From: a virus
Lineage: Duplodnaviria > Caudoviricetes
Strand: one strand, 5' to 3'
Length of the DNA: 64,000 nucleotides
IMG/VR virus record: IMGVR_UViG_2926558313_000004
Coordinates: 32,001 to 96,000 of that record
A program made the position numbers and the translations under genes. Shown piece by piece: positions 10,211 through 45,075 of the stretch; position 1 is the stretch's first letter; each line of letters begins with the position of its first letter. Below the pieces are notes generated by a model. It was given only the letters and a program-made list of their open reading frames with translations, was not told the DNA's origin and searched no databases.

Positions 10211-10400
10211 TGTAGGAGAGATTACATTATTTGAACTACTCACCACTTAACACCCTTCGGGTTGTTTGAAGTGGGAGATTCTTGGGAATAGAGCGTACTT
10301 GTTAGCGTATTTCTTTGCCAACAGAGGTTTCTCTTATTGACCAAGCTATCCCCGTAGATTCCTACGGTTCTATATTTTTTGTTTAAGCCAAAACTAAGGC
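10211..10400 (-). ncRNA. TnpB omegaRNA/reRNA scaffold plus flank-derived guide
   Basis: Structured sequence between the tnpB stop and the right end; guide predicted as ATAATGTAATCTCTCC (10230-10215). Boundaries approximate. Confidence 0.7.
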
Positions 10401-11525
10401 TCTTAAACCTTCGGCTAGGATATTTTTGCTGGCATTTATATCTCTATCGTGATGTTCGTGGCAAACAGGACAAGTCCAATCCCTTATTTCAAGAGATTTC
10501 TTGCCATCTTGATGTCCACAATCGGAACATATTTGACTAGACGGAAACCATCTGCTTATTTTCACGATTGTTTTACCATACCATTTCGCTTTGTATTCTA
10601 ATTTAGTTACAAAGGCAGACCATGATACATCAGAGATTGATTTTGCTAACTTATGATTGCGTAACATTCCTTTGGTGTTCAAGTCTTCGATACAGACAAT
10701 ATCGTGGTTTTTGATGATTTCTGTACTTAACTTGTTAAGAAAATCGTCACGTTGGTTCATTACTCTCTCATGCAATCTAGCAACTTTACGCTTTTGTTTC
10801 TGATAGTTTTTTGCATCAAGAAGGTTAATACCATTGTTTTTAGCATTTAACGCACGTCTTGAGAGTTTTCGCTGTTCACGTTTTAGTTTCTTTTCCATTT
10901 TTGATGTGAATTTCTTATTATCAATCTTGCGACCATCAGAAAGAATGGCAAAGTCAGTAATGCCTAAGTCTATACCAATAGATGATTCAGTTTTCTCCAA
11001 TGGCTGTACTTCTATTTCTGCAAGAATGGATACAAAGTATTTACCACTAGGATTTCGTCTAACAGTAGCATTAAGGAGACGACCATGTACTTCACGACTT
11101 TTGGCAAAGCGAACAAGACCAAGTTTCGGCAATTTGATTTTGCTGGCTACAATGGCAATGTTATTGTTTGTTCCTTTAGTCGTGTAGGATTGTACTTTAT
11201 TCTTTTTAGACTTGAAGCGCGGTGCTTTATTTTGTTTCTTGAAGAATCGAGTATACGAATCAGCAAGGTTTTTCAGTGATGATTGAAGGGCAATGCTATC
11301 AACTTCTTTTAACCATACTAATTCTTTTTTTAATTGTGTTAACTGAGCAGAACAAGAATTATAAGTTAATCCTTTGCCAGTTTCTTTGTATGTATCGTTC
11401 CATTGACCTAAAAAGCGATTAAATACAAAACGACTACATCCTATTGTTTTAGCAATTAAGATTTCCTGTTCTTTGGTTGGATAGATACGGAATTTGTACG
11501 CTTTGTTGACTAACATTGTTTCCAC
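10383..11525 (-). CDS. tnpB: RNA-guided endonuclease TnpB
   Basis: KAYKFRIYP HTH; RuvC D (GIDLG), E (IEDL), D (DRDINA); Zn finger CSDC...CPVC. Confidence 0.97.
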   Translation of the reverse strand: METMLVNKAYKFRIYPTKEQEILIAKTIGCSRFVFNRFLGQWNDTYKETGKGLTYNSCSAQLTQLKKELVWLKEVDSIALQSSLKNLADSYTRFFKKQNKAPRFKSKKNKVQSYTTKGTNNNIAIVASKIKLPKLGLVRFAKSREVHGRLLNATVRRNPSGKYFVSILAEIEVQPLEKTESSIGIDLGITDFAILSDGRKIDNKKFTSKMEKKLKREQRKLSRRALNAKNNGINLLDAKNYQKQKRKVARLHERVMNQRDDFLNKLSTEIIKNHDIVCIEDLNTKGMLRNHKLAKSISDVSWSAFVTKLEYKAKWYGKTIVKISRWFPSSQICSDCGHQDGKKSLEIRDWTCPVCHEHHDRDINASKNILAEGLRALVLA

Positions 11526-11526
11526 C

Positions 11527-11925
11527 TCACTTTAGACCTTGATTTTCAATGTACTTTTTAACTACGTTGATTGGAGATCCACCAGTAGTTAGTAAGCAAA
11601 AACTTCTCGACCAAAACATTTCTTTCCATAGCTTTTTTCTTATTTGTGGGAAGTCACGTTTTATCAGACGAGAACTTGCACTTTTATAAGCATTTATGAA
11701 CTTTGACAATTCTGTATTAGGGTGTGCTTTGAACAAGATGTGAACATGGTCTTTATCATGATTCCATTCGACTAGGGAGATATTATATTTCTCGCCTAGC
11801 TTTACAAACATATCCTCAGCATAGTCAGATACTTTATCATCAAAGACTTCTCTACGATATTTTACAACTAGTACAAGATGGTAATACATTAAGAATACTG
11901 AATGATTATTACTGTCCAATTTCAT
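11527..11925 (-). CDS. tnpA: Y1 HUH transposase TnpA
   Basis: YHLVLVVKYRR, DHVH (HUH), FWSRSF, YIENQ catalytic Tyr. Confidence 0.97.
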   Translation of the reverse strand: MKLDSNNHSVFLMYYHLVLVVKYRREVFDDKVSDYAEDMFVKLGEKYNISLVEWNHDKDHVHILFKAHPNTELSKFINAYKSASSRLIKRDFPQIRKKLWKEMFWSRSFCLLTTGGSPINVVKKYIENQGLK

Positions 11926-12710: not shown

Positions 12711-12935
12711 ATGATACGCAAAAAGCGTAAGAAATGTCTACTCCGATATAGGTTAGCCGAAAAACGCATGTCTCACACTGAGTTAGCTCAAATTACTGGA
12801 ATATCAGTCACCCAGATATCAGAATATATCAGCAATAAGCGTGGAATGTCTTTAGATAATGCTGCAACGATTGCTTATGTATTAAACACTCAGATAGATG
12901 ACTTGTATGATTGGGACATTACCATATCCGAGTAG
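12711..12935 (+). CDS. XRE/Cro-family HTH regulator (YopS-like)
   Basis: MSHTELAQITGISVTQISEY HTH; RBS AGGAGG; convergent with yopR as in SPbeta. Confidence 0.85.
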   Translation: MIRKKRKKCLLRYRLAEKRMSHTELAQITGISVTQISEYISNKRGMSLDNAATIAYVLNTQIDDLYDWDITISE

Positions 12936-13185: not shown

Positions 13186-13207
13186 TCAGTCCATAAATAC
13201 TGGACTA
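13186..13207. terminator. Hairpin at the yopR-like stop
   Basis: AGTCCA-taaatac-TGGACT. Confidence 0.4.
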
Positions 13208-14179
13208 AATTTCGTATAACTTCTTGATGTTTTCTATGTTGACATCCTCTTTGATGCCAATAAGGTTGTAATCCATCTTGCCTTGCAGTTTTGATTTTTT
13301 ATGCCCGAAATTTTGAACAATTGTTCTCAAGTCGTTATTTGTTAGCTCCCCTGTTTCTTCATATATATCCTTTCCCACTTTTATCATGCCACTTCTTGCG
13401 ATATTTGTCGGCGTGAGATAAGGATAGTCAAAAAACTTTTTAAGCATTTTTACTCTAGTATAAAGTGTCATATTTCCGACTGGTGCATTTTCATCTAATA
13501 CCCGACCATTATCAATAGATCGGATAATAAAATCATTGCGTATTAATTTCTTTTCTGGATTTGCTCGTTGAAAAACGGATTCTCCGTTATTAACAATGTA
13601 TACAGATTCTTTATAAGCTTCCGTAATTATTCTTAAACACCTATCACTTACTTTTACCTCCCTTTCCATCTCTCCTCTAACTTTTATAATATTATTATCA
13701 AAGTCTATGTCTTTATAATGTAAATTTCTAATCTCACTCAGTTGTGATCCTTTCAATCCTTCAAATAGCAACCGGAAAACAACCTTGTCTTGTCCATTAA
13801 CTAACTTCTTATCTTCTAGTTCTGCCAACTCTTCTTCAGTAAGAAACTGCTTTTTGCTATGGTCAATTAAACGGAACAAGGAATCTCTAGTTAAATTTGC
13901 AATTGGATTAATGGAGCTATTAGAATATCCATGAGCACTAGCCCAGTCTATATAATTTTTAAACACATTTGCTGCCATAGCTATAGAGCCTAATGATGGC
14001 TGAGCCATGTCTCTTAAGGTATCTTCAATTTCTGCTCTAGTAAAAGAATATAGGTCTTTCTGGAGCGCTCTTTCATTTCTTTCAGCCCCTCTTAGCTTGT
14101 ATCTATAAATAACTGCAGTATCTGCATCATAATTTTTTAAAAAAGCTTCTTTGATTTTTTCGTTGTACAAATTAGACAC
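13205..14179 (-). CDS. yopR: Tyrosine-recombinase-fold master repressor, YopR/MrpR/SroF-like
   Basis: LYNEKIKEAFL start; LLFEGLKG..LSEIRNL; lacks the canonical catalytic R and HxxR; third gene of the yopP-Q-R triad. Confidence 0.8.
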   Translation of the reverse strand: MSNLYNEKIKEAFLKNYDADTAVIYRYKLRGAERNERALQKDLYSFTRAEIEDTLRDMAQPSLGSIAMAANVFKNYIDWASAHGYSNSSINPIANLTRDSLFRLIDHSKKQFLTEEELAELEDKKLVNGQDKVVFRLLFEGLKGSQLSEIRNLHYKDIDFDNNIIKVRGEMEREVKVSDRCLRIITEAYKESVYIVNNGESVFQRANPEKKLIRNDFIIRSIDNGRVLDENAPVGNMTLYTRVKMLKKFFDYPYLTPTNIARSGMIKVGKDIYEETGELTNNDLRTIVQNFGHKKSKLQGKMDYNLIGIKEDVNIENIKKLYEI

Positions 14180-15608: not shown

Positions 15609-16682
15609 TTATAAATTCGAATTGAGGTTTCTTAGTAATATAATTTTCGCAACTTTATTACTATTAATTAAGTCCAATAACTCTTCTTTACTTAGCGATT
15701 CTAGAGCATCGCTGTTAAGAAATTTATCGAAATCTAACACACCTATTCTCTTGTATTTATTTTCTTTTATATATCTTTTTGTGACATTGAAATCTGAGTG
15801 ACCTGCGAATTCCATTGTCGCATGAGGATCTTTTGAGTTTTCATAAAAAATAGTAATCGCAGTTCCACGTATGCTATGGAAAGAGACATTTCTTTTTTCT
15901 GAAATATTCATTTTGATTTTAAGTTGATTCATTAGTTTCGATATATGATTCTTGTTAAACGGAAATACTACCTCGTCATTAACTTTATTATCAATTAATT
16001 CTTGAAAAAAGTCTTCATCTACATAATGAATTTTCCTCCGCTGCCCTTTTCCTCTTAATTCGATTTCATAATCTCCTTCTCTTGTGAGAATAAAATCGCT
16101 CCACTTCAACTTTAAAATTTCTTGCTGTCTCAGTCCGGTGTGTAAAGCGAACTTAATCAGCAATCCTTGAATAATTCGATTTTTAAATCTAGGCATTCCC
16201 TCTTTGACCATTGGGGCAATCTTTATCATTTCTTCTACTTCTTCCTTATGGAGTAAGCCGTAATTTACTTCTACGCTCTTAAGCTTTTGCATTTTACTAA
16301 TGAAGCTAATGTCTATATCGGCTAATAAACCAAATTCTATCTTCCTGCTATTTATATAGCTAAACAATCCAGTTATTGTCGTTAACTTTCGTTTTATTGT
16401 TTTATTAACCGAACCTTCATCCTGTAAATGAGCAATAAATTTATCAATATCGCTAACAGTAACTTTAAAATCATGTTCGATTAAATTTTCCAGCTCTTTT
16501 CCTTTTGTGATTTTAAAGAAATGTCTTATGTCACCCAAGTAGTTTTTAATTGTATTTTCGGATCTTCCGTTGCTCTTTAAATACATCATAATTATCTCTA
16601 AACAATTAACTTTATTTATATGGACTAATTGTAAGCTCATCTCTTTCATCCTCCTCAAAATTATATTAGGTTTATTATACAA
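15609..16682 (-). CDS. yopP: Tyrosine recombinase, YopP/SroD-like (start probably about 16649-16640)
   Basis: SAM-like N-domain (SENTIKNY); full catalytic set GLR, RGKG, FHSIR, AGH, RY. Confidence 0.85.
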   Translation of the reverse strand: MYNKPNIILRRMKEMSLQLVHINKVNCLEIIMMYLKSNGRSENTIKNYLGDIRHFFKITKGKELENLIEHDFKVTVSDIDKFIAHLQDEGSVNKTIKRKLTTITGLFSYINSRKIEFGLLADIDISFISKMQKLKSVEVNYGLLHKEEVEEMIKIAPMVKEGMPRFKNRIIQGLLIKFALHTGLRQQEILKLKWSDFILTREGDYEIELRGKGQRRKIHYVDEDFFQELIDNKVNDEVVFPFNKNHISKLMNQLKIKMNISEKRNVSFHSIRGTAITIFYENSKDPHATMEFAGHSDFNVTKRYIKENKYKRIGVLDFDKFLNSDALESLSKEELLDLINSNKVAKIILLRNLNSNL

Positions 16683-20598: not shown

Positions 20599-23500
20599 GA
20601 CTATCCCTCATTTCAATTGAGTATATAGTATATTATACTCAAAATTTCCATTGTTTGAAATATTAAGAGGGGTGAAACACTCCTTATTTTTGAATCATGA
20701 TTACCTTTAATCAAACTGACATTTCAACTAGATTTATGACTGTCTTTATATTCACTAACTGACATTTCTTTTAACTTTAATATATTGTATTTGTCCAATA
20801 AACCAAGCAATTCTCTCGGTTCTAAATGATCAATTGAACCAATATCAACCTTATCGATAATTAATCTCTCGTCAATTCCTCTATTAACCCACGTAACTTC
20901 TTTCATATTATCACACTCCTTCAAATAGATATTTTATTCAGCTTTTTTATTCACAAAGTAGAGAAATAATTCTTCAATTTCTAGAATGTTCTCTTCAATA
21001 TTACCTTCATTGTTATTAATAAAAGCTAAAGCCTCTGTATAAGGTTCTCCATCAAACGGGGGAGACACTGCTGTTAAATTGTCAATTGGTACTCCATAAG
21101 CTCGTATAGCTTCATCAACCTCCCTTGATAACCTGTGAGCTTTCGCTTGTGCTTTTGCATATTGCCGCAGCTTCTGTTTAATTTCATATGGCATTGCTTT
21201 CATATTTAAATTTCACCTACTTTATAAGTTTGCGTTCAATTTTTACTTTCTAGCATATGATCCCATCTATACTCATAAGGAAAACCAATAAAAGAACTTT
21301 CAAACTTCTTTACTCCTGCCTCTTTTAGTTTTTCTTTTGTCCACACAGGCTTATTATTTAAGAAATGTCCTAATGTACTGAATCCATCATTATCGCCCAT
21401 GTAAAACATTTGATTTAAGTACTGAGAGTTTTTTACATCTTTAACTAAGATTGCAGTTTCAATTTGAAATACTCTTCCTACACCACTAGAAATGTCATCT
21501 TCTTCTAATGGATAGCCAGTTAAGTTAGCGAAAACCACAACTTCTTCATTTTCATACATCTCAAAATAGTAATCGAAATTATTATCATTGAATTTATTCT
21601 CTATGATTAACTGGTCAATGTCATTAATTTTCATCTCACTAAGCTTTTCTATATATTCAACTTCAATCTCTGGCAGTTTCATATGAGTTTACTCTCTCCT
21701 TTTCGCATTAGAGCTTTCCTCTATAGTGTCTATTCTAAATTCGTATTCATTCACACGTTTATAATACATAAATCTGTTGTAGTCATCTCCCCAGTAATAT
21801 CTACCTAAGACTTTTCCATTTTCCCAAACTTCTACATAGTAATCATCTATACTATGATTGTCATCATGTATAGAGGCTATTGCTTTTTCGAGATCAGTTC
21901 CTGCATAGATTGTTCTAGTTGGCTCATGCATATCCACTTCAAAAATTCCCAAATACACCTTCGTCATTTTATATCCTTCTCCTTAAAACTCTGATATTAT
22001 CTGGCTAAAATCGATAGAGCGTTTAACTCATTTCCAATCCATTCATATTGAAATTTACTAAACAGTTGAATAGTTAACTCATAACCCTCTTCGACTTCTA
22101 CAGCATCACTTATAACACCGATAGTTTTTGTTTCAAAGGTATTAGAAAGGTCTACTCTGTCTAATACAGGTTTATTTAGATAGGAAGATAGTTCACCATC
22201 TTTTGGAACTATCGTTTTAAACTTGACAAAGCTCATATTCTCCCCTCCCTCCTTTTCTTTAAAAGTGAAATTTTATTAAATATACTGCACCACCGCTATC
22301 TGCCTTGATTCCTTGAGGCACTACTGCTTCACTCTTTACTTTAGTCTTACTAATGCTAAATTCTACAATTGCTGTTTACATTTCTTCATCTCTCTGAAGT
22401 GAGCCTCATCTGAATTTATCATACTTACCCTCTTTCCATTTTTCTTTTGAAACCTGTAGTACGATTAACCATCCATTGCGAAATCTACATTTTTCATATA
22501 CTTGGATATATTCCTCTGACTCAGAAATGAATCTTTCCATCAAAGTGCTCCTCCTCTCACTGTAAAATCATACTTTTAAATAGTTATTTCTTTCTTTTGC
22601 TTACTACTTCACTAACCCCTAATACGCCCTCTTTATCGCAAAAGATATTTGTAAAAGAAGCTTCAGTTACAGCTTCAAAAAGGTCGCTATCTATTAGCTT
22701 ATTGGCGTAGTCAGCATTTTCAGATGAAATAGCCATTCCAATCCTATCATCTGTTTTACTTAATGACAGATATACTTTAAATACATAGTTCAACTTTTCT
22801 AAAGGATGCATCTCCCTCAATGTATCTGAGCTAACTGTATTAAAGCCTTTACTTTTGAAATACGGATCTGACAATAGAATCACCCTCCAAATTTAAAAAT
22901 GGGAAATCAGATTTTATTCTTCATTACCTTCATAAAATTCATATTTTACCAAAAGTTATTCACTAAGAAACCTTTCAAAGTCTTCCATCATAGTATGTAA
23001 ATATGAATGTCCACCGTCCCATCCAACGCTATTCAATTCCTCTTCAAGAGCACGAAGGTTTTCTAGAAATGCCTCCGCTTCGGCTTTTTGACCATCTAAG
23101 AATCCCTTATCATACTGTTTTAACTTTGCCATTGTTCCCCTCCTTCGCTTTAGTGTCGAATTGTGTATTAAAGTTCTTCAAATTCCCTCTCCTTATCAGC
23201 AAGAAATTCTTTGTGATGCTGTAAAATAACGTCCCTCACTTCATCTTTTTTCTCTCCAATTAAATACATTTTTTGCGGCTTTGTTGCTGAGGATAAGGTG
23301 ATTTCATCAGATTTAAATAACTCTTCCCAGTTTTTTATATTTAATCGTTCGGTTCTGATTATCGACTCCAGAACTTTAGCCCTTTGTAACGTTTCCATGT
23401 CCATTTTCTCTCACCTTCCTTCACAAAATCACTCTGAAATACACCAGTTCGATTTTTACTTTGCTGTTATACATAATTATACCATTTCAGCCATTCGCTC

Positions 23501-26500
23501 AGTTAGCCCTTTATTCAAATTAACGCCCTCTAAATTCATCTTTTTTGTATATGTAAATCCTTCTTCTAAGTCTGCTTCTACGCATTCTTTATATTTCAAT
23601 CCTCTATAGCTTTCATCATTAAACGGTATCTTATATAAATAACCCTCTACAAAATCATAAGCTCGTTCCTCAGTTTTAAATGACTCTACTGGCATGGATG
23701 AGAACTCCATATAGACATCATAATATCCATGTGCCTCTACAACCTTAGTATTATTAATATTAGCAATTTGCTCTCCTTTCATTATTATCACCTCTCCGAA
23801 TAAGTCTTTTCTTCTTTCTTGAATTAGCCACTTTTACGAAGTGGTCAATTTCATTTTGATCATTTGCTTCAATAGCATTATTATATAATTCAATTTGTTT
23901 ATCTGTTAAATATTCGACCACTTCTTCACTCATATTTATCACCTAATTATTTTATATTTGTTTATTCATCCGCACACTCGAAATGATTTTCTTGCTTCAG
24001 CTACTTCCATCATACGCATTAAGACATCTACAAAATCACTATCTGACCTTGAATGATCTTCATAAGCCATAGCAAGTTCTAACTGCTCTTTTGGTGTCAA
24101 ATAAAACATTAATCCGTTAAACTTTTCATAAGTTTCAATATATTCATTATACGCATCGATTTCAATTTTCATCTCATCAACACTCATCTTCTCTCCCCCT
24201 TGCAATTTATTTCCTTAAGTTAATAATAACATGGTTTCCACATCCTAACAATAAAAATCTTAACATAATTTAATTTATTTTATTTACAAAATTCCAGTTC
24301 GAATTTTCGTTCGCTGTTATACGGTTTCGCGCTGTCTAATATCATTCAAAATTTCGTCTTTAGATCTTCTTACTCCAATTTCATTTATAACTTGAATTCC
24401 CAGAGAAGTAAAAACTTCTTCGAGAATAGGGAAGTCAACTTCATCATACGAAAACTTTCCATCGGTCGATGCATTTTGAATGTTGCTTAATAAACGTTTC
24501 AATAAATCATCCTTACTAATTCGACCGTCAACCATCCAAGCACTATAGAAGATATTACCAATAAATTTTCTTAATTTTATTTCTTCCATAAGCTTCAAAT
24601 CGATCATTTTTTGATAAATATCAACTACCATACTCAGGATATTATATTTATCAATATGATTTACTGGAATGTCATATAATTCAGAAGCAAAATACTTTAA
24701 GTCTTGATCATAGTTAATTCGTCCGAAGTGTCCTTTGGTGTATAATATAAGCTGCTTTTCAAAATGATTAAGTTCTGTTTTCATGTTACACCACCCTTTA
24801 ACTATATTTATTTTTAATTTCTACCATAACTAACATTGCATAGGTGAAATAGGATTTATCACCGAACATTTTATACAGCGTCATATAATCATTATATTTA
24901 TCAAGAAGATCATCAATGCAGTGATTGTTAGATAGTTCAAGTTTAATTATCATATCAGCATTCACCAGCCTCATAATTTTATTAATTTGCTCCTGAGAAA
25001 AAGCTTCTGGTTTATTATAGTTATTCATTTTTAAGCTCCTATCTGCCTTCTTAAAATCAGCATTTTATTAAGTTTCATAGTCTCCACCTAAAATTTCATC
25101 TTTGGTGAATATAGGCAAAATCCATAGCAACCAATATGTAGTACTTTTTCTTTTCTGTTTTCCATAATATCCAACCTTTTTAAAATAATATTTTTCAGTC
25201 TTTCTTATCATGTTATCAACTCCTTTAAAGTTTTTTAATGCCAATAAATTCATCTGGATAAATATATTCACTTAAATATCTTTCTTTATCCCATACATCC
25301 AATCTGTCATAACCCAGCCCTTCATTCTCTACTTCTCTAACTTCCACTATGTCACCGTTAGACCATAGCATCTCTCCCTGTCTAATTGCATTCACATTAA
25401 TAATTTTTATTTTTTCTCCTTTTTTGAAATTAGTAATTAACATTTTTGTCATCCCCATTATTAAATTTAATTGAAATTACATTTTTATTTAAAGCTGTTC
25501 AATAAGTTAACTTTTCTTTCCGCTTCTTCACTGCTCGCATAGCTATAAGGAGAATGACCACTTTCAGTATGATAGATATGATAGGCTCCGGTTTCATCTT
25601 CAAACTCATAATACCATTCTCCAATTTTCAATTGCTCTTCTGTTAATTTCATTAGATCTCCTCCTCTAAAATCCCTATTTTATGTAGCTGCTGTTATTCA
25701 ATCTCACTTACTGATTCAGTCCAAAAACAAGACCCTGTATTGTTGAAATAAATGTCAACCTTTTCATTCTTAAAGAATTGTATTAGTAAATCATAAAAAT
25801 CTGTCGTTGGGTTAATAATCTGGTCTTCCATATTCAAATATCTATCTTTAACCAACTTAATATCTACACTACTATGATTGGGGATCAGTCTTATACTACT
25901 TCCTGACTGTTCCATTAAATTGTTAAATTCATTAATCATTTCTTTTGAAATAACGCTCATCATTATTCCCTCCTGTTTTATCCAATCATTTTGATTATAC
26001 TATGTCTTGAATATGTTCACATCGATAATTTCAGCAATAGTATGTAGCTGCTGTTATACACTTAATGATCGAACTATTCATTAACCTTTTTAAACCTTCC
26101 ATTAATGTACATTTCTTCTCTTACATATCTTCTTGCTGATTGATACGAGGGAAACCAAAGGGCGTTTGTTGTTGAATCACTCCAATGGTTAGTGCAGATT
26201 GTAAAAAAGTCTTTTCTTACTTCTGTTATCGTGACAGTTTCTCTATCAGTTTCAATTCTCCATTTATTCAATTTTTACACCCTTTCTTAATGAACATAAT
26301 CACTCTTATGTTCAATTACTATAAAATGATTCTTTTAATTAAATTGCTCAGACTTCTTTTTAACTGTTAAAATAAACTCTCCTGCAACTCCTTGCTCGTA
26401 AAAATAATTTTCAAAATCATCTAAGGTGTCAATTAATGTCATAATCATATGTTGTTCAGGCAACATTTCTATTTCAAATTTTACATGTCCTTCATCATTC

Positions 26501-26820
26501 ATTTCAATATAATATACACTTCCCGAAGCTTTATAATGCATCATGGTATATTCTACTTCAGGAAAACGTTGCTCGATAATGTCTTTTGTTCTAAAATCAA
26601 AAGTATGAATACAAGCAACCATTGCTTGCTCTAAAATGTCATTAAAAGTGACTTTTTCTTTATCTATTTCCAAGAATCCTATTACATCTGCAACTTGTTC
26701 ATAAACCCCATCACTTAGATTATAGATGTAGTTTTCCTCAAAATTATTTCTAGCATATTTTTGAATCATTTCTTCACGGCTCATTAGTTTATTCATTAAT
26801 ACCCCTCCTGATTTTAGATG

Positions 26821-27057
26821 CTATTCACCCGAAAACCAATCGTCTTCATCAACTATTTTAAAAACTCTGTCTACATCTGTTATTTCTAATGCCGTGATTA
26901 TTGTATTGAGCGTATCTATCTTGATTGTCGTTCTTTTCATGTTCACAAGCTCACTAATCTTGGGCTGCGTAATGCCTGTTAACTGACTTAGTTGAGCTTG
27001 TGTCATGTTTTTCTCATAAAGTATTTCTTTGAGGCGCAATTTAACTTTTAAGTTCAA
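26821..27057 (-). CDS. XRE-family HTH regulator
   Basis: LKEILYEKNMTQAQLSQLTGITQPKISEL. Confidence 0.9.
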   Translation of the reverse strand: MNLKVKLRLKEILYEKNMTQAQLSQLTGITQPKISELVNMKRTTIKIDTLNTIITALEITDVDRVFKIVDEDDWFSGE

Positions 27058-27931
27058 TAATTGTCACTCCCCTTCGAAATATCTCTTAGCTGCTTCGAAA
27101 AAGAATTTTTCTGGCAGGGCATATAAAGGAAAGTCAAATCCTTGTAAATTATATTGCTCATGAATTTTTCTAGTTAAGCCGTCGTTTAAAATTCCGGTCT
27201 TTTTCCATTCCACTAATTCGTCGTAAGCCGCTTTTAGTTGCTTGTCTGTTAATGCTGCAATAAACTCCTCTAAATGTTTCATTATTATAATTCCTCCTTA
27301 AATTCCAGCGATTAAAAGACTTCGCTGTTATATGATTAATCATTAAGGTAGTCTGTATCCAATTCAGCATAGCAAGGGTTGACATCTTCTATATTTTTTC
27401 CTTCCGGTACTTTCCAGCATATAAAAGCCGGATGTCCGTCGATTGTTTCTGCTTTTGCTACATGTGTGAAACCTCTTGGACTGCTTATTTTGATTGGCTT
27501 ATCAGTCATTATATATTCATCTTCTGCAATTGTATAAACTTCCATATTAAATCCCTCCCCTTTTGAGTTATATTATACCATTGTTGGAATAGAGGGCAAT
27601 TGAAGAAAACATATTTTAGTTTTTTCTCAATGACCTACTTTTATATCGAAAAATTTTAGAAAGTCATCCGTTACAAAAATATCATCCTTTGTGATCTCTG
27701 CCTGTATGTCCTTGTTATAACCTTCGGCTGCACTGTAAATAGCGTAAATTTTTGCTTTATCGTATGTGCGCCCATTTAGTTTTACAATTCTTAGAATAGC
27801 CCCATGACAAATCACCAGTCGGTTGAATTCGTCATTACCTTGTATGGATATATCATTTATTTTACCTCCCTCAAAAATTATTGTTGCCGTAGCCCCTGAA
27901 TTTTTATGAGTTAATACTATTATTTTCATTT

Positions 27932-28693
27932 CTAATTCCTCCTTTCTATTATAAACGTAATCTCATGATCGTTTGACAGATCACCTTGTAATACCTCGAT
28001 TAAGTATTGCGGATTACGAATAAACTTTTTAATGAGTGTAACGCTTGTGTATATCATGATGTTTCTATAAATTTTATCGTGGTCACTTACAACATCGTTA
28101 GAGTTGAATGCCCCGCTAAGATCAAAGTAGACATATGCTTCTCTATCTCCTTCTGTGAACGATTCATCACCGTTATTAGATATATCCACCTTTATTTTTG
28201 TTTGGTAGAATAATCCGTGTTTTAATTTTTGGATAATCGTCACGCCCTCTAATAAAGCTTTTTCCAGTTGATCGCTTGTCATCTCAACTGTTTTGTAATC
28301 AATTGTCTTTTTTAGTGACGGGCGCTGCAATCTATCCCATTCTTTTATTAGAGTCTCTTCCAGTTTCCTTTCTTTTTCGGGAGGAGACTCTTTATTATTT
28401 TTTGAGTTTATTTCCATTTCTACATAGTCGAAAATTATATCGACGTGTACATATCCCGCCCAATATGGATCGTAACCTGGATCAATCGACTCTACTGTCC
28501 TAGATTTAAAAAACAGGATCGCTTGCTCGTCACTTTTTAGATTATGACATAGAGACGAAGGGATTACTGTGTAGTGCATGTTGGTATTTTTGTCAAGTAC
28601 TGTGTAATCGGTCAAAATATCTTTCAGATGATAGTCTGATCGAGAAAAATCCTTACCTGTTACCTTTAACATATCTTTGTGTAATTGTTCCAT
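27932..28693 (-). CDS. Hypothetical protein
   Basis: 253-aa ORF with RBS GGAGG. Confidence 0.7.
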   Translation of the reverse strand: MEQLHKDMLKVTGKDFSRSDYHLKDILTDYTVLDKNTNMHYTVIPSSLCHNLKSDEQAILFFKSRTVESIDPGYDPYWAGYVHVDIIFDYVEMEINSKNNKESPPEKERKLEETLIKEWDRLQRPSLKKTIDYKTVEMTSDQLEKALLEGVTIIQKLKHGLFYQTKIKVDISNNGDESFTEGDREAYVYFDLSGAFNSNDVVSDHDKIYRNIMIYTSVTLIKKFIRNPQYLIEVLQGDLSNDHEITFIIERRN

Positions 28694-28803
28694 ATCATCC
28701 TACCTCCATTTATTTTATTTTTATTAATTTCGTTTTTAATCTTTCCAGCAATCCTTCGATCAAGCTGTTATACACTATAACTAGTCGAAGGATTAAGCAA
28801 AAA

Positions 28804-29370
28804 TTAAATATCTAACTCTTTAACTTTGATCGGATTACTTGCGACAACTAACCGCTCACTAAGAGCTACGTCTGTTAAGTCGCCATCTTTTTTATAATCA
28901 AAATCTTTAATTGTAACAGCCGTATACATATCGCACTCAGTAATCAAGTGTGGAGGCAGTGTGCCGACAACGTGCTTGCCTTTAATATCCTCTGCTGTTA
29001 CATTCTCAAAAACGGGCGCTAACCACCAGTCTTTTTTAAGAATATCAATCGTGCCTTTATGACGGCTTGCGATCACTGTTTTATCTGGATTGGAATACTT
29101 AATAAGATCAAGCTTATCTACAACCTCAATTTGATATTTGCGTACTGGTAAATCAGCATCAAAAATCTCTTGAGATGTGTTAAATATTGTGCCTCTCGGC
29201 AGTTGCAGTGCATAAAACTCTGTTACTCCTTGCTCTGCTAAAATAGCAGGTGATAGCGACGATAAAACAACCTCTTCTGTTCCTTGACTGAAATCAGATA
29301 ATCCCTTAATAGCTTCAAATCCACTTGCTACAACCTTTTTTTCTGATAATAATTGTTTAATAGTTTTCAT
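28804..29370 (-). CDS. Csx16-like protein with tandem domains (putative ring nuclease)
   Basis: C-half IASRHKGT...DIKGKHVVGTLPPHL matches the Csx16 SRH.G...V.GTLP.HL pattern; N-half VVLSSLSPAILAE...YALQLP looks like a degenerate copy. Confidence 0.55.
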   Translation of the reverse strand: MKTIKQLLSEKKVVASGFEAIKGLSDFSQGTEEVVLSSLSPAILAEQGVTEFYALQLPRGTIFNTSQEIFDADLPVRKYQIEVVDKLDLIKYSNPDKTVIASRHKGTIDILKKDWWLAPVFENVTAEDIKGKHVVGTLPPHLITECDMYTAVTIKDFDYKKDGDLTDVALSERLVVASNPIKVKELDI

Positions 29371-30827
29371 TTTAAATTCTCCTTTTTTTATATTTTTAAT
29401 TTTATTTTTCCAGTGATTCTCTTAGCTGCCTGTTAATCAACTAAGAGAATCTGACAAGTATGAATTAGATATTCTCTACTCTGATTGGATTATCCCAATC
29501 ACAAGCTTCTGACTCGTCTGAAGTATCAAAATTAATTGTTTCCCAGTAGATCATATATTCCTTATCATTTTCATCGACAGCATGAGCTTTATACTCACTA
29601 CCATCATCTGAAACATATGCATCTTGCAATGTGCGATACTCTTTACCCTCAAATTCTACAATGGTTGAATTTCCGCTATTTAATTCTTCAAACTTTTTCA
29701 TAATGACTTCCTCCTTTTGTTTTTGTTTCCTTATCTTTAACTTAATTTTATACTAAAAGTAGTATAAAGTCAATAAATTATTATAATTATTTTTATTTTA
29801 TTTATAGGAAATGTGTTTTAATAATGCCTGTTCCAGCCATGTAAAATAATCCTGCTAAAACAATACCTGTCAATATAATAATAGACCAATCAGTTTTATC
29901 TTTATTTTTAATTTGTTTATGTAGCACAATTATCAACCCCATATCATTATTTTAGTTTTATATTGTGAATGAAAAACCTTCCCTCTTACGTTCAGATAAA
30001 ATAGTCATTAATACCGAATCTTTCTTTATAACCCACTACGTTCAGATAATAAAGTCACCTATTTACTTTTTAAAGATCGGAAAGTAACTATGAGATGCGA
30101 ACCCGCAACGTCCAACCTCTAAAACATATCCATTGTTATTTTCCGTTACACAGATCTCCTTATAAGATGAGACATATTCCATTTTCTCTTGTACTTGCTT
30201 AGATATAAAATACAATCCTTTTGAATTCAAATAATTACAAGCGTCCTCTGCTCTTTCAAAATAAAGTTCTCTCCCCCAGTCTTTTTTAAATACGCCAACA
30301 TTCATACCGTTAATTATTTCTCTCATTTTTTACCTCCTGTTATTTAATGATTTAATTATCGCTCATTAAATCAGATATATCAATAGTATCCTCTAAATTC
30401 ATCAACCTGTCAGACATAGCACCCTCTAAATCGTGTTCATTAATCCCAGCTTTGAGTAGTCTTTTTTTTGATTACCTTTTGTTTTTCGAGGGATAATTGA
30501 GATATAAAGATTGTTTTGTTATACTCCATCTATTATAACTCCTTATATAATTAACTTTAAAAGATTGAATTTATCCGAATACAGTATTTATTATTTCCCC
30601 AGTTTTTACATTTAGGAATTTTTCGTTTTTATAATAATCTAAGTAAAACATTTTAATAAAACTTATACCTGTTTCCAAAAGCCCGAAATCATACACCAGA
30701 TTATCCACTTCAATTTTAATCTGATGATTATCTAAGTTGTAATTTATAAGCTTAATGTCTGAAGCCTCTACAAGTTTTTTAATAAACATTTTTATTCCTC
30801 CTTCCAACTTAAAATATTACTTTTATC

Positions 30828-31091
30828 CTAATTAGTTTTTAGGTGTATTTCTCCATTGTCACTAACCTTCAAAGTTGTAATTCCAACATACTCTAAAACT
30901 TCTACCTCTAACACTTGAAACATTTCTCCATTTGGATTACAAAATTTATCATTTACAATTCTCTCAAAATGTCTAATACTTCCGTTTTTCATTTCAACTT
31001 TAAACCTAACCTTATGTCCCTCAAATTCTTTTTGTCTGTTAACAAATTCATCTATGCTCATTTTCATTTCAATTCCTCCAATTTTTTTCAT
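30828..31091 (-). CDS. Hypothetical protein, paralogue of 35499-35705
   Basis: Shared MSIDEF..RQ.EFEG.K.RFKVEMKNGSI.HFER.VNDKFCNPNGE.F.VLEVE.LEYVGI. Confidence 0.8.
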   Translation of the reverse strand: MKKIGGIEMKMSIDEFVNRQKEFEGHKVRFKVEMKNGSIRHFERIVNDKFCNPNGEMFQVLEVEVLEYVGITTLKVSDNGEIHLKTN

Positions 31092-32022
31092 AAAAGGTTT
31101 ATTTTATTATAGCTTCCTATGCTTCTTGTTCTGTCCGAAAAACTGTAAATTCATTCCTAGTCTACTTTTATCTTTCTTCTTTTTTAAAAAATCTTTTGCA
31201 AGCTCAATTTGAGAAGGCTTTAACGCTTTAATAATTGGACTTTATTCATCTTTGATCGTCCGGCAATTCCTTTTTCCTTCGCTAGTTCATAAAGCTCTTT
31301 CATTGTCATATTAGATAGTTTTTTGTTATTCATTTTTATTTCCTCCCTGTTTATCTTTAATTTTATTTTATATCATTACTAGTATAATGTCAATATATAA
31401 TTTAATTAATTTTATTAAAATGCCAGTGATAATTTAAAGATGCTGTTATAGAAATGTTAATTACGAACCAATCTAACAAAATTGATCAATTGCTCCTGTG
31501 AATAGTTTTCTCGTTTAAATCTTGGTAAATTAATTTCGTTCAAATCAAATTCTTTCAAGCCTAATTCTTTTAGGCGTCTAAAATAACTTTTCAGGCTAAT
31601 CCATTTTAAAGCTGTTATACTTGTTTCCCATTCGCTAAAACGAACGAGTGAACCGTCTACAATATTATAATTATATTTAAAAATATTTCCCGTGTTCGTA
31701 TTAACTTCTACGACTTCATAGGAACATGAGCCATTGTTGTATTTTCTGAATGCCTTGATATTTTTCATATTAAAAACCTCCAGTATTATTTATACTTTGC
31801 TGTTATAAGCTTATTTGTTCGGCTTCAATATTTAATTCATTCACCCATCTATTATGTGCTTCTATTCCTGCTCCTACGTTACGGCAGCACTGAGGGCGCA
31901 AAGGACATTGCCCGCAATTATTTTTATAGTTCTGTTTGCAAATATCCTTTACTTTTTGTTTTAATTCTTCATACATGCTTAAAACCTCCACCAGTTCGAT
32001 TTTTAATCTGCTGTTATATAGA

Positions 32023-34173
32023 TCACGCTGGTTGCATTTCCTTCTTTACTTGCAAGGCAACAAACTTTTTTGCGTCTTCTAATTTTTCAGTTGTTTTTGT
32101 GGAATGGATTTCATATCCATTTTTAAATACTCTAAAGCATCCCCACAACTTACAAATCCAATAATTACCATGAATATACACACGCCTATCATCTTTAATT
32201 CCCATGTATTCAATTTCTTTTCTCTTTGTTTGGAATTCAATATCAATTTCAGTATTTTTAATTTCTTGCTTTAACTTACTATCCTTCTCATTAATAATTC
32301 TGTATTCAGTTTTATTAATTTTATTTTCGATCTCTTCTGTTAAATGGACTAAATCGCCCATTAACTTATGCTGTCTATCATCTGCTTTTCTATCTTTATG
32401 TCTATTCCTTCCGGCTGCCCCAGTGACAAACCATGAAGGATTGTTTGCCTTGAAGCTTAGATATTTGACATAAGCATCATAATATTTCTTTTTAAAACGT
32501 TGTAAGTCACGTTTTAAATAATAGATTGTTGCTTTATTACTTGTTGTAGAAATAACCTCTTTAACTTGATTAGTATAGCGTGAAAACGTTTCTTGAATTT
32601 CTTTCGTATGGTCGCGCTTCTGTTTACGGAATACCCATGCACTGTCATGCTCTCTATCTTGTAGCTGTTGATCAATTGTATATGTTTCAATATCATCAAT
32701 TTCAATGTCAGGAAAGTTTAGGCTTGTTCCGCTTTCGCTGTTATGCGCTTCTGGTTGAGTATTATTACAAAGCGTTTGCACAAACTCCAAACGTTCCTCA
32801 CTTTGTTTTGCATACCATATCTTTCTAGCTCGTGACCATCTAAAACCATGCGCTTTTAGTTGTGCTCTGATTTCTTCGCTTGGCTTATCCGAAAATGAAA
32901 CTTCAATGCCGTTTTTCTCTTCATTCAAATAGTATGTTGCAGCATTGGTCTGCTCTTTTACTTCTTCGCTGTTATTGGTGGTTTCTTCATCAATTAAAGG
33001 ATCAAAATTACCTTCTCTACTATTTTTATTATTTTTATATTGATTATTATCCGGTGTCGGTTCAAAACCTTCTTTGACAGCGATATAACGAGCGTAGTCA
33101 TAGCCTTGCGGATCAATTAACAATGTTTCGTTTGTTTCAGTGTTAATCACTTCTAATACTACTCTATATGATTCATTTGCCCAACGTGTCTGATCTTCTT
33201 CTGACAATTCCCACATATTTTCAATGTCTTCGTTGACTTCAAATGTGCTATTTGTCCCACCCTTGAATTCTGTATTTAATGTTTGCATGTCTAAATTTGA
33301 TAAAAATAAATCGAATGATTCTTTATCAACTGAAATAGATTCTTCTACAACATATCTGTCATATGTTGCTAATTCCTTGGATATAACTTCTTTCATGCTA
33401 CACGGTTTGGAAGCAAACCATGCAAACGCAATTCTTTTCCCTTCTTTTGTATATAATTCTTTTTGTCTCGGCTCATCTACGGTTTCTCTTGCTCGTTCCA
33501 TTTCAATATTGTAACGCTCTTTCATGCTTAACTGATCTTTGATTGATGTAGTATCAAAAAGTATCATAGCAGTTCTATCGCTTTGTCCATATTGTTGAAT
33601 GGAACGCAGTTCAACATCTTTTACTAGTCTAACATTACCGTATGTCTTAAAACCATTTAAGAGCATTTCTTTAAGCGCCAACCCTGTAACATAGGGAATG
33701 TTACTAGCAATAAAAATTCTGTTATCAATTAACTCCTTACGCTTAAAATCGCCATGACTTCCTATTGCAAAAATATCGGTATTATTAAACTCTGCTAGTT
33801 CTGCTTTGATTACTCTGTTATCGTTTAGTAATTCGCAGCCTGTGAGATAACTATAATATTCAATCCAATGCGAATGATATTCGTCATAGTAATAAAATTC
33901 AACTTTATAAAGGGATAATAAATCAATGTTTTTATATGTAGCAGATTGAAGGAAGGAATCTCTTTTTTGTTTTCGCTCAGCTTCTTTTGCATTAAAAGCC
34001 GCCTCATGTTCTTTTTGTAAAAACAGACTAACAGCTTCAATAATTTCAGTTTTATGTTTTCTTGCTCCCTTTCCTTTTACTGAACTGTCGCTACCTTCAA
34101 AATAAGAAATAACCGCTTGAATCCCTTCACCACTTACTAAATATTGTCCATACTCTTTTTTCACTGTTAGCAT
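32023..34173 (-). CDS. Large multidomain (polyvalent-type) early protein
   Basis: Modules DPQGYDYARY, NGIEVSFSDKP...LKAHGFRWS...WY and SWFVTG, as seen in large polyvalent proteins of phages and plasmids; own strong promoter. Confidence 0.6.
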   Translation of the reverse strand: MLTVKKEYGQYLVSGEGIQAVISYFEGSDSSVKGKGARKHKTEIIEAVSLFLQKEHEAAFNAKEAERKQKRDSFLQSATYKNIDLLSLYKVEFYYYDEYHSHWIEYYSYLTGCELLNDNRVIKAELAEFNNTDIFAIGSHGDFKRKELIDNRIFIASNIPYVTGLALKEMLLNGFKTYGNVRLVKDVELRSIQQYGQSDRTAMILFDTTSIKDQLSMKERYNIEMERARETVDEPRQKELYTKEGKRIAFAWFASKPCSMKEVISKELATYDRYVVEESISVDKESFDLFLSNLDMQTLNTEFKGGTNSTFEVNEDIENMWELSEEDQTRWANESYRVVLEVINTETNETLLIDPQGYDYARYIAVKEGFEPTPDNNQYKNNKNSREGNFDPLIDEETTNNSEEVKEQTNAATYYLNEEKNGIEVSFSDKPSEEIRAQLKAHGFRWSRARKIWYAKQSEERLEFVQTLCNNTQPEAHNSESGTSLNFPDIEIDDIETYTIDQQLQDREHDSAWVFRKQKRDHTKEIQETFSRYTNQVKEVISTTSNKATIYYLKRDLQRFKKKYYDAYVKYLSFKANNPSWFVTGAAGRNRHKDRKADDRQHKLMGDLVHLTEEIENKINKTEYRIINEKDSKLKQEIKNTEIDIEFQTKRKEIEYMGIKDDRRVYIHGNYWICKLWGCFRVFKNGYEIHSTKTTEKLEDAKKFVALQVKKEMQPA

Positions 34174-34290
34174 TGTTTATCATCCTTTCGAAAGCTGTTT
34201 ATTAACTATCTTTATCTTATACTACATTTGATATAATGTCAATAATATAATTTAATTTGTTTTGTTTTTAAAATGTTGATTTTATGACAA

Positions 34291-34318
34291 GGAGAGTCAG
34301 CTATTCAGCTGATTCTCC
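34291..34318. terminator. Hairpin terminator
   Basis: GGAGAGTCAGCT-attc-AGCTGATTCTCC directly after the stop at 34318. Confidence 0.65.
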
Positions 34319-34662
34319 TACCCTTCCATGTTACATACATTACCGTTTCCATCTTCCCACATTTCATTAATTGGACAACTTCCATTGTCCAAGTCTTTGA
34401 TAATTTGCTCCATATCTTCGATTGTCGCTGGTGTGATTAATCCCAAAAAGTTTTCTTTCTTGTCGTAAACTTCAAAAGCGTGTAGACTATGGTCAAATTC
34501 CACTTCATTTACAATTACTAATGCCGTTTCCCAGGTTTTCATAATATAACCTCCTAATAGTTATTTATTAACTACCTTAATTTTATATCAGAAGTGGTAT
34601 ATTGTCAATACAATAATTTAATTCAATTTATAAAAACAGTTGTTTTTTTAAATTAATATTAG

Positions 34663-34694
34663 GGTTTCACTCTCTAACGTTAGAGAGTGAAACC
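34663..34694. repeat. Perfect 32-bp palindrome overlapping a stop codon
   Basis: GGTTTCACTCTCTAACGTTAGAGAGTGAAACC. Confidence 0.9.
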
Positions 34695-35498
34695 AAGAAA
34701 CAACTTTTCATACTTCCTTCTTTCGTATGTATCTTTGATTTCTTTGTTTACTCCGTTGATTGTTTCCCACATTCTGCTTTCTGTATCAATCCATAAAACA
34801 TAATCTTCGTTGTTTTTATAAGAACTAACTAATGTGATAACTACATTTAAATTATATACCGGCATTTTGATTCCTCCTAATAGTTATTTATTAACTATCT
34901 TAAGTTTATATCAAATGTAGTATAATGTCAATATATTTATTTAATTTATTTTATTTGCTGTTTAAAAAGCGTATTTTATTAAGATGAAGAGAAGGAGAAA
35001 CCAGCTTATTAGGCTGGTTAATTATCTAAGTAAATTGTTAATCTTTCTTTTAAATATGCCTTGTTTAAATCTAACCGTCTTGATAATTTCTGAATTCCTT
35101 CATCATTGAAAGTAAATCCATAGCCGTTAACATTTACGTATTCCTGCCATAATTTTCGACCTTCATGCCATAATTTTCTTTGTTCCATTGTCATATGTAG
35201 CAACCTCCAAATATTTTTTATTTGTTTTCTTACTTATTATATTACATGTTCATCTAACGAAATTCAAGTATTAATTTAATTTATTTTGTTTTAAAATCAC
35301 TGTTTTATCTTATTATTCTTGACAGAATTCTATATCATTTACATCTACAAAACACTCCCCTCCATCAAAGCGAACCAAAACTAAATCTTTTTCCCCTAAA
35401 TAGTTTACCTCTGTAATATAACCAATAATAGATGGATCACCTTTTCGTATTACTTTATCATGTAATTTAAATTTCATTATTTATCACTCCATTTTTTA

Positions 35499-44105: not shown

Positions 44106-44159
44106 ATTATTATCTCCTTTATTTAATTTAATTTATTTTTAAGCTGTTGTTTTTTGAAA

Positions 44160-44400
44160 TTGGTCAAGCGTTAGCGCGACCAATTTAGAATGTATATATC
44201 TCTTGTATCTATTACTTGTATATATTATCTGTATCTATATATATTAAAACCTCTTTTTAGATCGCAATTTATACCGTATTAATTGATACGCAACCTAGTA
44301 ACTTTTGATTTTCATCTGGTACTATTTGATTCGTATCTGGTACTTTTTGAACACTATCTGGTATAAATTGCGATACGCTGATTTATAAGGCTTCTTGAGC
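44160..44400. repeat. Putative replication origin: 21-bp iterons, 15-bp inverted repeat, AT-rich tract
   Basis: ATCTGGTA at 44314, 44335, 44356 (degenerate copy at 44293); ATCGCAATTTATACC (44261-44275) inverted at 44360-44374; TATA-rich 44194-44245; hairpin 44160-44183. Confidence 0.7.
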
Positions 44401-44406
44401 CATATT

Positions 44407-45075
44407 TTATGTGTCTGAATCCCCTATTAATTTGGTTATATTCTCCAACTTAACATAAGTATGATTTGCATACTGAACATAATCAATCATGTTTCCATCT
44501 TTCTCCCATCCCGCATGTTCCAACTTATGTTTTTTTATTCTAATCAACTTATTCTTTTTAAGTATTTCGTTGTATTTCATGATTGTATTTTTAGAAATCC
44601 CAGTTTCTTGTGAAATAGTTGATATGGAAGCATAGCAGCGATCTTTATATAATTCTAATCGGTTTATTCTTGATTCATAATAATAAATCAACCTAACTCC
44701 TACACTTCCAATTTGATCGACTATTCTTTTGTCTAAAAGTCTTATATCAACTTGGGTAAAATAATTCTTACTATGTAGAGTTGTCATTTCTTTATTGATA
44801 TGAACTTGCAAAGCCTTTTTCTTTGGAAAAGACTTTATTTCATTTAGAATTAACTTATTTTCATACATATTATTGAAAATTAGTTTTAAACTGCGATTAT
44901 CTGAGACAGATAAATAGTTCTTTAAGGCGGTATGATTCACTTCTAACAATTCGGATTTACACCTTCCGTAAAGTTCACATAATTTAGCGAACAGCAGGAA
45001 GGCGCTAGATTTCAGAGCAGGATTCCTTACCACTTCTTCTGTAAGGAGCTGCAGTTTAAACACCTTATCTGACAC
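44407..45075 (-). CDS. wHTH protein, putative replication initiator
   Basis: CYASISTISQETGISKNTIMKYNEILKKNKLI HTH; lies between two helicases with iterons directly downstream. Confidence 0.65.
   Translation of the reverse strand: MSDKVFKLQLLTEEVVRNPALKSSAFLLFAKLCELYGRCKSELLEVNHTALKNYLSVSDNRSLKLIFNNMYENKLILNEIKSFPKKKALQVHINKEMTTLHSKNYFTQVDIRLLDKRIVDQIGSVGVRLIYYYESRINRLELYKDRCYASISTISQETGISKNTIMKYNEILKKNKLIRIKKHKLEHAGWEKDGNMIDYVQYANHTYVKLENITKLIGDSDT

Follow-up and report, generated by a model that had tools for sequence, protein, structure and literature searches.

A strand-polar 28-bp intergenic element repeated in the early accessory-gene region of an SPβ-like prophage and related phages

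The stretch of DNA analysed here (64,000 nt, the window) comprises positions 32,001 to 96,000 of the IMG/VR virus record IMGVR_UViG_2926558313_000004, and corresponds to contig C5:32003-96002 of the genome that carries it (G000). BLAST against SPβ places the window in an SPβ-like prophage which is colinear with SPβ, the first ~150 kb of C5 having a GC content of ~31% versus 46% genome-wide. Counterparts of SPβ YonO (53% identical), YonN, YopP, YopQ, YopR, YopS and LigB, and of the replication and late genes, are present. In the leftward early region, between a gene for a 716-aa protein and the yopPQR-like genes, lies a block of genes on the minus strand in which a bipartite element is repeated. 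Read on the coding strand, this element is TATAACAG-N16-CTGG, and it constitutes the subject of this study.

Written on the plus strand, the element reads CCAG-N16-CTGTTATA. With at most one mismatch this pattern matches the window eight times, on the plus strand only; in 100 shuffled versions of the window the mean was 0.20 matches and the maximum 1. Seven of the matches are exact (23444, 24294, 27305, 28745, 31423, 31780 and 31991), and that at 26031 is a TCAG variant. Two further sites are a variant at 29410 (CTGTTAAT) and a truncated copy, with CTGTTATT at 25691-25698. Pattern scan and inspection of the sequence agree with an earlier note on this DNA, which had listed nine full copies with N16 and a truncated one. 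The sites are given below in window positions, with weight-matrix scores in bits (ORF, open reading frame; RBS, ribosome-binding site).

31991..32018, minus strand: copy 1, TATAACAGCAGATTAAAAATCGAACTGG; 7 nt past the TGA of the 716-aa gene, RBS GGAGG 1 nt on; 26.6 bits
31780..31807, minus strand: copy 2; its own TAA is the stop of ORF 31803-31976, CTGG lies within the next RBS (CTGGAGG); 32.4 bits
31423..31450, minus strand: copy 3; 6 nt past the stop of ORF 31457-31768, and followed after 29 nt by the -35 of a strong sigma-A-type promoter (31393-31365)
29410..29437, minus strand: copy 4; variant 5' box ATTAACAG, 10-bp stem of upstream sequence with the N16 segment; 24.7 bits
28745..28772, minus strand: copy 5; 10-bp stem AATCCTTCGA/TCGAAGGATT of upstream sequence with the N16 segment
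27305..27332, minus strand: copy 6; internal dyad CAGCGA/TCGCTG, RBS 8 nt on; 35.1 bits
26031..26058, minus strand: copy 7; 3' box CTGA; 29.0 bits
25671..25698, minus strand: truncated copy, AATAACAGCAGCTACATAAAATAGGGAT; equal to copy 7 at positions 2-18, then divergent; its TAA is the stop of ORF 25694-25963
24294..24321, minus strand: copy 8; its own TAA is the stop of ORF 24317-24784; 33.3 bits
23444..23471, minus strand: copy 9; 5 nt past 'gene C' (23477-23791), whose homologue in the related genome G032 has a copy at the same place

Within the 4,525,319 bp of G000, all the exact matches (7/7) fall inside this block, and the eight one-mismatch matches elsewhere occur singly, dispersed over other contigs. 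In a scan with a 34-nt weight matrix the copies stand out cleanly, as the nine full ones score 24.7-35.1 bits against a maximum of 16.9 in the remaining 4,375,319 bp. The spacing is strict. On the coding strand of the prophage, TAACAG-Nx-CTG[GAT] occurs nine times with x=16 and 0-1 times with any other x from 8 to 24, and on the opposite strand it occurs 0-1 times at every x. Every window copy is on the minus (coding) strand and the exact copies are found only in this block of the genome, which bears out the single orientation and the confinement described in the earlier note.

Arrays of the element also occur in other phages. The motif-bearing genomes considered besides G000 were the following.

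G032, same family as G000, other genus: 8 intergenic or near-consensus copies over 20 kb
G035, same family as G000, other genus: 2 copies
G435, IMG/VR provirus: 8 forward and 0 reverse copies, 60.4-72.3 kb
G436, IMG/VR provirus: 4 copies
G437, IMG/VR, 180.5 kb with terminal repeats: 9 copies
G438, IMG/VR provirus: 6 copies
Perkons, Psychrobacillus phage: 4 full copies
E3, Geobacillus virus: one weak full copy (11 bits)

Six of these genomes (G032, G435, G436, G437, G438 and Perkons) hold same-strand arrays in small-gene blocks of 4-20 kb. The distant relatives that share the signal number at least seven. All array copies lie on the coding strand in G000 (9/9), G435 (8/8), G438 (6/6) and Perkons (4/4), as do nine out of ten copies in G437, whose tenth copy is outside the array. 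The spacing is equally preserved, with N16-spaced counts of 9 in G000, 10 in G032, 7 in G435, 2 in G035 and 4 in Perkons, and 0-2 for each of the other spacings. SPβ itself (134 kb) has no array, its one forward and one reverse match being at chance level. The 5' box taken alone, as the 8-mer YATAACAG, is found 21 times forward and never in reverse in 32 kb of Perkons (2.2 expected) and 10 times forward and never in reverse in E3 (2.3 expected), versus 5 and 3 times in SPβ (5.8 and 4.5 expected). In G437, 22 of the 26 coding-strand copies of this 8-mer are inside 11.5 kb, about one per gene. MrpR-like and YopP-like genes are present in every motif-bearing phage, and a YonO could be detected in G000, G435, G437 and Perkons. 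These proteins have diverged considerably, the identity to the YonO of G000 being 52% in G435 and 23% in G437, and that of MrpR between motif-bearing phages 23-44%.

Megablast of the motif block against 50,697 phage records gave no match, and a search of genome contigs with the 716-aa protein gave no related locus. The motif pattern matched genome contigs as 15 singles, approximately the chance number, one of them in a contig of G035, and metagenomes as 19 singles, with a second copy only in L055. Among 401 genomes of the host's order, none besides G000 has at least three matches; among 49 genomes of the host's family, at least three matches are found only in G000 and G032.

The anatomy of the element was derived from 50 copies pooled over genomes, which were selected by TAACAG-N16-CTG, so that positions 3-8 and 25-27 are fixed by the selection itself. 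Position 1 is T or C in 45/50 copies, position 2 is A in 47/50 and position 28 is G in 35/50. Positions 17-24 read a-a-a-t-a-t-c-g, and the 3' flank has the consensus aattttt. The element consists of a 5' box (Y)ATAACAG, a variable A-rich centre and a 3' box ATCGCTGG or TCGAACTGG, 28 bp in total. The first type of 3' box is that of G032, G435, G438, G035 and part of the G000 copies, and the second that of G437 and the other part of the G000 copies. Between the two types the TCG is offset by 2 nt and the overall length is constant at 28. The CAG-N16-CTG dyad that had been described for the window is real as far as its 3 bp are concerned, but it reaches 5-6 bp in only 2/10 window copies.

With respect to the genes, the ORF map agrees with the earlier description that the element adjoins stop codons, its TAA being itself the stop of the ORFs ending at 24317, 25694 and 31803. 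The other window copies begin 4-31 nt past a stop, and the next RBS, as also described, follows 0-80 nt downstream of the window copies. When sites are pooled over genomes, 43/52 lie outside same-strand ORFs of at least 70 aa, and the motif's own TAA is a stop codon in 10/52. Measured from the upstream stop, the motif lies at a median of 8 nt (interquartile range 2-29, n=45), and the next start comes at a median of 42 nt beyond the motif (interquartile range 22-70, n=50). As the former distance is the shorter, the element belongs more to the end of the upstream gene. In about nine copies its final GG opens the next RBS (CTGGAGG). Individual junctions may lack a copy: downstream of 'gene C' there is one in G000 and in G032, but none in G035.

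One perfect copy (38.9 bits), in G032, is located in frame inside a 564-aa ORF, both flanks of which have protein homologues. The full 28 nt are translated there as YNSKVKISLD, between two homologous protein segments, and to judge by this arrangement it looks as if two genes had been fused across a junction.

According to these data, the element is a real and conserved phage signal, and apparently one that has not been described, to go by the literature on SPBRE/MrpR, on YonO and on Perkons, by a review of SPβ and by a string search. Among the papers listed by this literature search for TATAACAG or CTGTTATA were primer lists, and the words 'motif' and 'promoter' are absent from the Perkons paper. 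Several known signals were dropped on sequence and known consensus only, namely LexA, Spo0A, CcpA, DnaA, Chi, KOPS/SRS, dif and Ter, together with the consensus sequences of extracytoplasmic function and sporulation sigma factors, tRNA T-loop mimicry and 16S rRNA complementarity.

The first question to be considered is whether the signal is read on DNA or on RNA. No fold is shared by the 21 copies examined, with z-scores around 0. Hairpins do occur at individual copies (28745 and 29410 in G000, and several in G437), with the boxes in loops or stems and differently each time, and in E3 one hairpin, a terminator, overlaps the boxes. A scan with Rfam of 22000-35000 gave only two sub-threshold matches, neither of them at a motif copy, and no intrinsic terminator was found on the coding strand between 22500 and 35000, despite the presence of several strong promoters. 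The exact N16 spacing, the only one enriched, fits a rigid duplex better than a flexible single-stranded RNA, and the in-frame copy in the 564-aa ORF is awkward for a cleavage or termination signal. On the basis of the spacing, the inconsistent hairpins and the in-frame copy, it is somewhat more likely than not that the motif is read on duplex DNA. Two RNA-level identities were examined on these results: the intrinsic terminator was rejected, because the block has no terminator-like site and no shared hairpin, and the lambda-type nut site was disfavoured, as no conserved hairpin stands for boxB.

The reading favoured here, which must be regarded as tentative, is that of a polar duplex-DNA site bound by a phage protein and acting as a barrier or silencer in the manner of a stoperator. 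A phage-encoded protein or pair of proteins would read the site as duplex DNA sequence, and the site would function in one orientation only relative to transcription. In the lineage of SPβ-like (YonO-encoding) temperate phages it would punctuate the early accessory-gene array, most likely as an orientation-dependent barrier or silencer between gene units. The reader would presumably be a DNA-binding protein whose binding blocks or insulates transcription. In favour of such a polar site are the rigid spacing, the strand polarity, the intergenic placement close to stops and the lack of a shared RNA fold. The prophage is, in addition, temperate, and encodes MrpR-like and YopP-like DNA binders with the tyrosine-recombinase fold and several helix-turn-helix (HTH) proteins, including those at 12711-12935, 44407-45075 and 51581-51991. 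The proteins of the window most relevant to the array are encoded as follows.

15609..16682, minus strand: YopP-type tyrosine recombinase; Pfam tyrosine integrase, with the R, HxxR and H..Y motifs intact
13205..14179, minus strand: MrpR-type protein; both MrpR Pfam domains, tyrosine-recombinase fold with degenerate catalytic motifs, homologue of the SPβ master repressor
32023..34173, minus strand: 716-aa gene; heads the array, its homologues being followed by a motif copy in G000, G032 and G035

The YopP-type protein could be proposed as a candidate reader of the site. Pfam and PHROGs searches of about 50 window proteins pointed to no candidate beyond the MrpR-like, YopP-like and HTH proteins.

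In one published account, stoperators are described as asymmetric sites in short intergenic spaces, co-oriented with transcription, whose inversion abolishes function, and their repressor as a monomer using two DNA-binding domains (PMC9283540). The stoperators of cluster A mycobacteriophages (L5 gp71 type) resemble the present element in being asymmetric, multicopy, short intergenic and in one orientation, in a temperate phage. They differ from it in that they are 13-mers spread genome-wide and double as operator at the early promoter, whereas the motif is a 28-bp bipartite sequence in one accessory block, absent from promoters and without a linked repressor.

Several observations weigh against a barrier or silencer of this kind. 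Phyletic profiling of seven complete or near-complete genomes (six motif-bearing versus SPβ) yielded no protein family present in all six and absent from SPβ. The closest was a PhoH-like or PIN-PhoH protein, found in 5/6 of the complete motif-bearing phages and not in SPβ. The motif has been kept despite the strong divergence of every candidate regulator (only 23-44% identity between the MrpR, YopP and YonO homologues), and such persistence is unusual for a repressor-operator pair. Copies stay within one block of 4-20 kb, unlike the genome-wide stoperators, and none overlaps an early promoter; the true SPBRE analogue seems to be a different repeat, one embedded in promoters. In Perkons and E3 there is enrichment of the 5' box by itself. 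That the reader binds DNA and that it acts as a barrier are both things that we infer. A polar DNA site nevertheless ranks first among the explanations, followed by a recombination site and an RNA 3'-end signal at the same level, then by a promoter and lastly by an attenuator, the remaining probability going to other explanations, including an antisense promoter on the plus strand.

A first rival, which seems doubtful to us, is that the element is a cassette-border site, whose two arms are bound by a YopP-type tyrosine recombinase that exchanges strands in the centre, the accessory genes being thereby gained, lost or swapped as units, much as at integron attC sites or in Xer pdif modules. With 28 bp, conserved arms and a variable centre of ~8-10 bp, the element has the anatomy of a recombinase core site. 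In the G437 array nearly every gene has one site at its 3' end, all of them direct; the gene content between sites is almost wholly non-homologous between phages, with the site retained; and a module of three genes has copies on both sides in G000 as well as in G032, next to unrelated neighbours. The sequence of copy 9 (23444) is the left part of copy 2 (identical to 31780 at positions 1-15) joined to the right part of copy 1 (identical to 31991 at positions 14-28), and the truncated copy at 25671 equals that at 26031 at positions 2-18, so that in both cases the identity changes within the variable centre or next to it. A YopP-type recombinase that is apparently active and has no known role lies 3-15 kb from every array. 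However, the arms are not inverted repeats, and the centres differ between copies, which would block classical tyrosine recombination between them. SPβ has YopP, yet lacks the motif, Perkons and E3 often show only the 5' box, GTTRRRY is never found at the 3' end (0/52 sites), and the same cassette was never seen in two different contexts.

Integron attC sites carry the inverse core sites RYYYAAC ... GTTRRRY at their ends and measure 57-141 bp. A model in which the element was an attC-like site had been put forward for this DNA, and part of it has endured: as with attC, the site is at the 3' end of each gene unit, sometimes over the stop codon, with all copies in direct orientation, in a hypervariable array and with a tyrosine recombinase nearby. 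What has not endured is the structure. Besides the lack of GTTRRRY, GTTATA occurs within 150 nt downstream in only 3/52 sites, and the motif, at 28 bp versus 57-141 bp, has neither the R''/R' inverse core nor a folded imperfect palindrome (21 copies folded), so that membership of attC was rejected. An adjacent divergent intI/attI/Pc unit is also missing, the nearest tyrosine recombinase (15609-16682) lying 6.8 kb downstream on the same strand; no search for IntI-specific features was made. The Xer dif site is 28 bp long with partly palindromic arms, and in pdif modules several sites in alternating orientation bracket genes. The element resembles them in its 28 bp, its two different arms and its central spacer, and in bracketing gene modules as pdif does, but its arms are unrelated and all its copies direct. 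It would be a still more speculative step to propose that SPβ-like phages own an integron-like system, in which the conserved YopP-family recombinase recognises the two-arm 28-bp site behind every small accessory gene and excises, captures or swaps such genes as units. In such a system the differing centres would act like heterospecific lox spacers, and so only matching sites in co-infecting relatives would recombine.

Just as doubtful as the cassette border is a signal at the RNA level, that is, a processing, stability or decay site at the end of genes in a polycistronic early mRNA, recognised by a host or phage ribonuclease or an RNA-binding protein. The RNase III sites of T7 early RNA and the RegB sites of T4 are analogues. 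The strictly coding-strand, intergenic location, nearer to the upstream stop than to the next start, is in line with it, as is the 12.5-kb region without a canonical intrinsic terminator on the coding strand. A motif conserved while the phage regulators diverged would fit a conserved host factor, and the PIN-PhoH or PhoH protein of most motif-bearing phages also speaks for this explanation. On the other side, exact spacing is hard to reconcile with unstructured RNA, the perfect copy in frame lies within a coding region, local hairpins sequester the boxes variably, and the preference of PhoH2, AC[A/U][A/U][G/C] (PMC7390352), does not fit the ACAGC of the motif, for which reason a PhoH2 cleavage site was discarded. 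The nut-like or RNA-processing signal suggested in the earlier note has been weakened by the lack of a shared hairpin and by the in-frame copy, and is left with a reduced probability.

A further, rather unlikely, explanation is that the element is a promoter of a phage-specific temporal class, either with the 8-mer as a -10-only element and the start in N16, or in a 6-16-6 arrangement with an AAC-type -35 and CTGG as -10, recognised by a sigma-like factor. T4 late promoters work in a -10-only manner. Strand-specific intergenic repeats of phages are most often promoters, and the 6+16+6 layout is promoter geometry. In G000, Perkons and E3, no coding-strand 8-mer is more over-represented than this one, Shine-Dalgarno words being on a par with it, and the motif keeps to a single gene block, as expected of a temporal class. 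Nonetheless, a domain search of C5:1-150000 for sigma-70 region 2, region 4 and region 4_2 gave no match. About nine copies have an RBS that overlaps the 3' box, and transcripts starting downstream of CTGG would be deprived of it. The motif follows upstream stops and not downstream starts, some copies are already trailed by strong sigma-A promoters, and the rest of the host genome has no copies. One start of SPβ YonO has been mapped (PMC5467207), which by our own coordinate conversion is record position 60451 on the minus strand. The sequence upstream of it is without the TAACAG motif, and the YonO promoter was therefore rejected as an identity. The earlier suggestion of a promoter for a phage sigma factor or RNA polymerase stands as a rival for a factor still to be recognised.

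An ordinary sigma-A promoter on the coding strand was also rejected, because TATAAC ends in C and there is no conserved -35. The plus-strand extended -10 that had been proposed to drive antisense RNA fails in the same way, as the sixth base of the hexamer is T in 0/9 copies and no -35 is conserved.

Least likely of all is a hairpin-independent, factor-dependent terminator or attenuator with its T-rich tract past the 3' box. The 3' flank consensus is T-rich, the region has several promoters yet no canonical coding-strand terminator, and three copies, in three genomes, have a strong promoter 20-32 nt downstream. Against this, many copies are inside operons and abut the next RBS, one is inside an ORF, and the T tract is missing from the G437 copies. 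A comparable situation is that of the PeSL motifs of T4-like phages (PMC4122927), which are likewise conserved short intergenic motifs, found at the edges of small, variable ORFs in hyperplastic regions; as in the present case, they include chimeric copies, which suggest exchange at the motif. PeSL, however, comprises an early promoter and a stem-loop, and the motif has neither.

The relationship to the other repeated element of the family, SPBRE, deserves separate mention. Ten genes have SPBRE in their promoter regions according to the MrpR paper (PMC10516654). From the upstream regions of those ten SPβ genes, the SPBRE derived here is tAGACAaatacAAAwAATATGTATAT(aat), a sigma-A-type promoter with a conserved spacer. 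SPBRE and the motif both have ~10 copies, point in the same direction as the genes and lie in the early region within one phage family. They differ in that SPBRE sits in sigma-A promoters whereas the motif follows stop codons, and in that SPβ has no motif array. As the motif is also unlike the 15-bp SPBRE in sequence, identity with SPBRE or the MrpR operator was rejected. The window does contain a promoter-embedded repeat, TTGACAtTATAc...TAAAAT with conserved flanks, on the minus strand at 34608, 34242, 31393 and 29773. It corresponds to four near-identical strong sigma-A-type promoters (34608-34580, 34242-34214, 31393-31365 and 29773-29745, minus strand) with TTGACA/T, a 17-bp spacer that starts with TATAC, TAAAAT or TAAGAT, and a common upstream AAATTAAATTAT. 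By its position, this repeat is likely the counterpart of SPBRE and the MrpR operator. Sequencing run X1 yielded identical contigs of low depth, none of them joined at the motif and with a single loose end, located at a repeated promoter, an uninformative outcome.

For lysis-lysogeny control (arbitrium, MrpR and YonO), SPβ and its relatives serve as a model, and the motif represents a second repeated cis-element of the family, distinct from SPBRE. It marks the borders of a fast-evolving array of small genes, which in Perkons includes an ArdA anti-restriction gene, and can flag such arrays in unannotated prophages, one pattern search having turned them up in three further IMG/VR proviruses. As a 28-bp probe, it may serve to study the roles of YopP and YopQ, the insulation or silencing of early accessory operons without canonical terminators, and gene exchange in arrays.

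Some minor features of the array and its surroundings were also recorded. In E3, the homologue of the 716-aa gene has only the 5' box, CATAACAG, overlapping its stop codon. Members of the 716-aa protein family contain a recurring xNS(E/D) linker encoded by ATAACAGCGA, with sites at 32744 and 32976 in the window, at 1680436 in L012 (G032) and at 10899 and 11142 in L017 (E3). A second, AT-rich family of intergenic words often occupies the space from the motif to the next RBS; the prophage (G000:C5:1-150000) has 18 occurrences of ATTTAATTTAT, and AAAATATAAAATAAA-like words precede many RBSs in G035 (L014). This family may be what the earlier note called the first junction element. Around 29950-30060, the intergenic region after ORF 30063-30326 has two direct copies of TTATCTGAACGTA, and at 30024-30052 Rfam gave a sub-threshold match to CRISPR-DR43 (31.4 bits versus a gathering score of 35).

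The low-GC prophage begins at the contig edge of C5 and ends at ~150 kb. A search for serine recombinases in the C5 part of the prophage gave none, and one prophage end is probably missing from the G000 assembly, as is the SprA-type serine integrase present in E3, G435, G438 and Perkons. An IS200/IS605-type pair (10383-11925, minus strand), inserted on the downstream side of the MrpR-like gene, encodes a TnpA-like protein of 132 aa and an OrfB/TnpB of 380 aa, and E3 has IS605-type elements in the equivalent region. The minus strand of the window also encodes a tubulin/FtsZ-like protein (53000-54109), an FtsK/SpoIIIE-like protein (47456-49669), a RecD2-like helicase (45118-47316) and a UvrD-like helicase (42333-44105), these genes (42333-54109) having no SPβ ORF match by BLAST. 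Finally, the PIN-PhoH fusion of the window is encoded on the plus strand (58542-59840), directly after the YonN homologue and at the head of the late genes.

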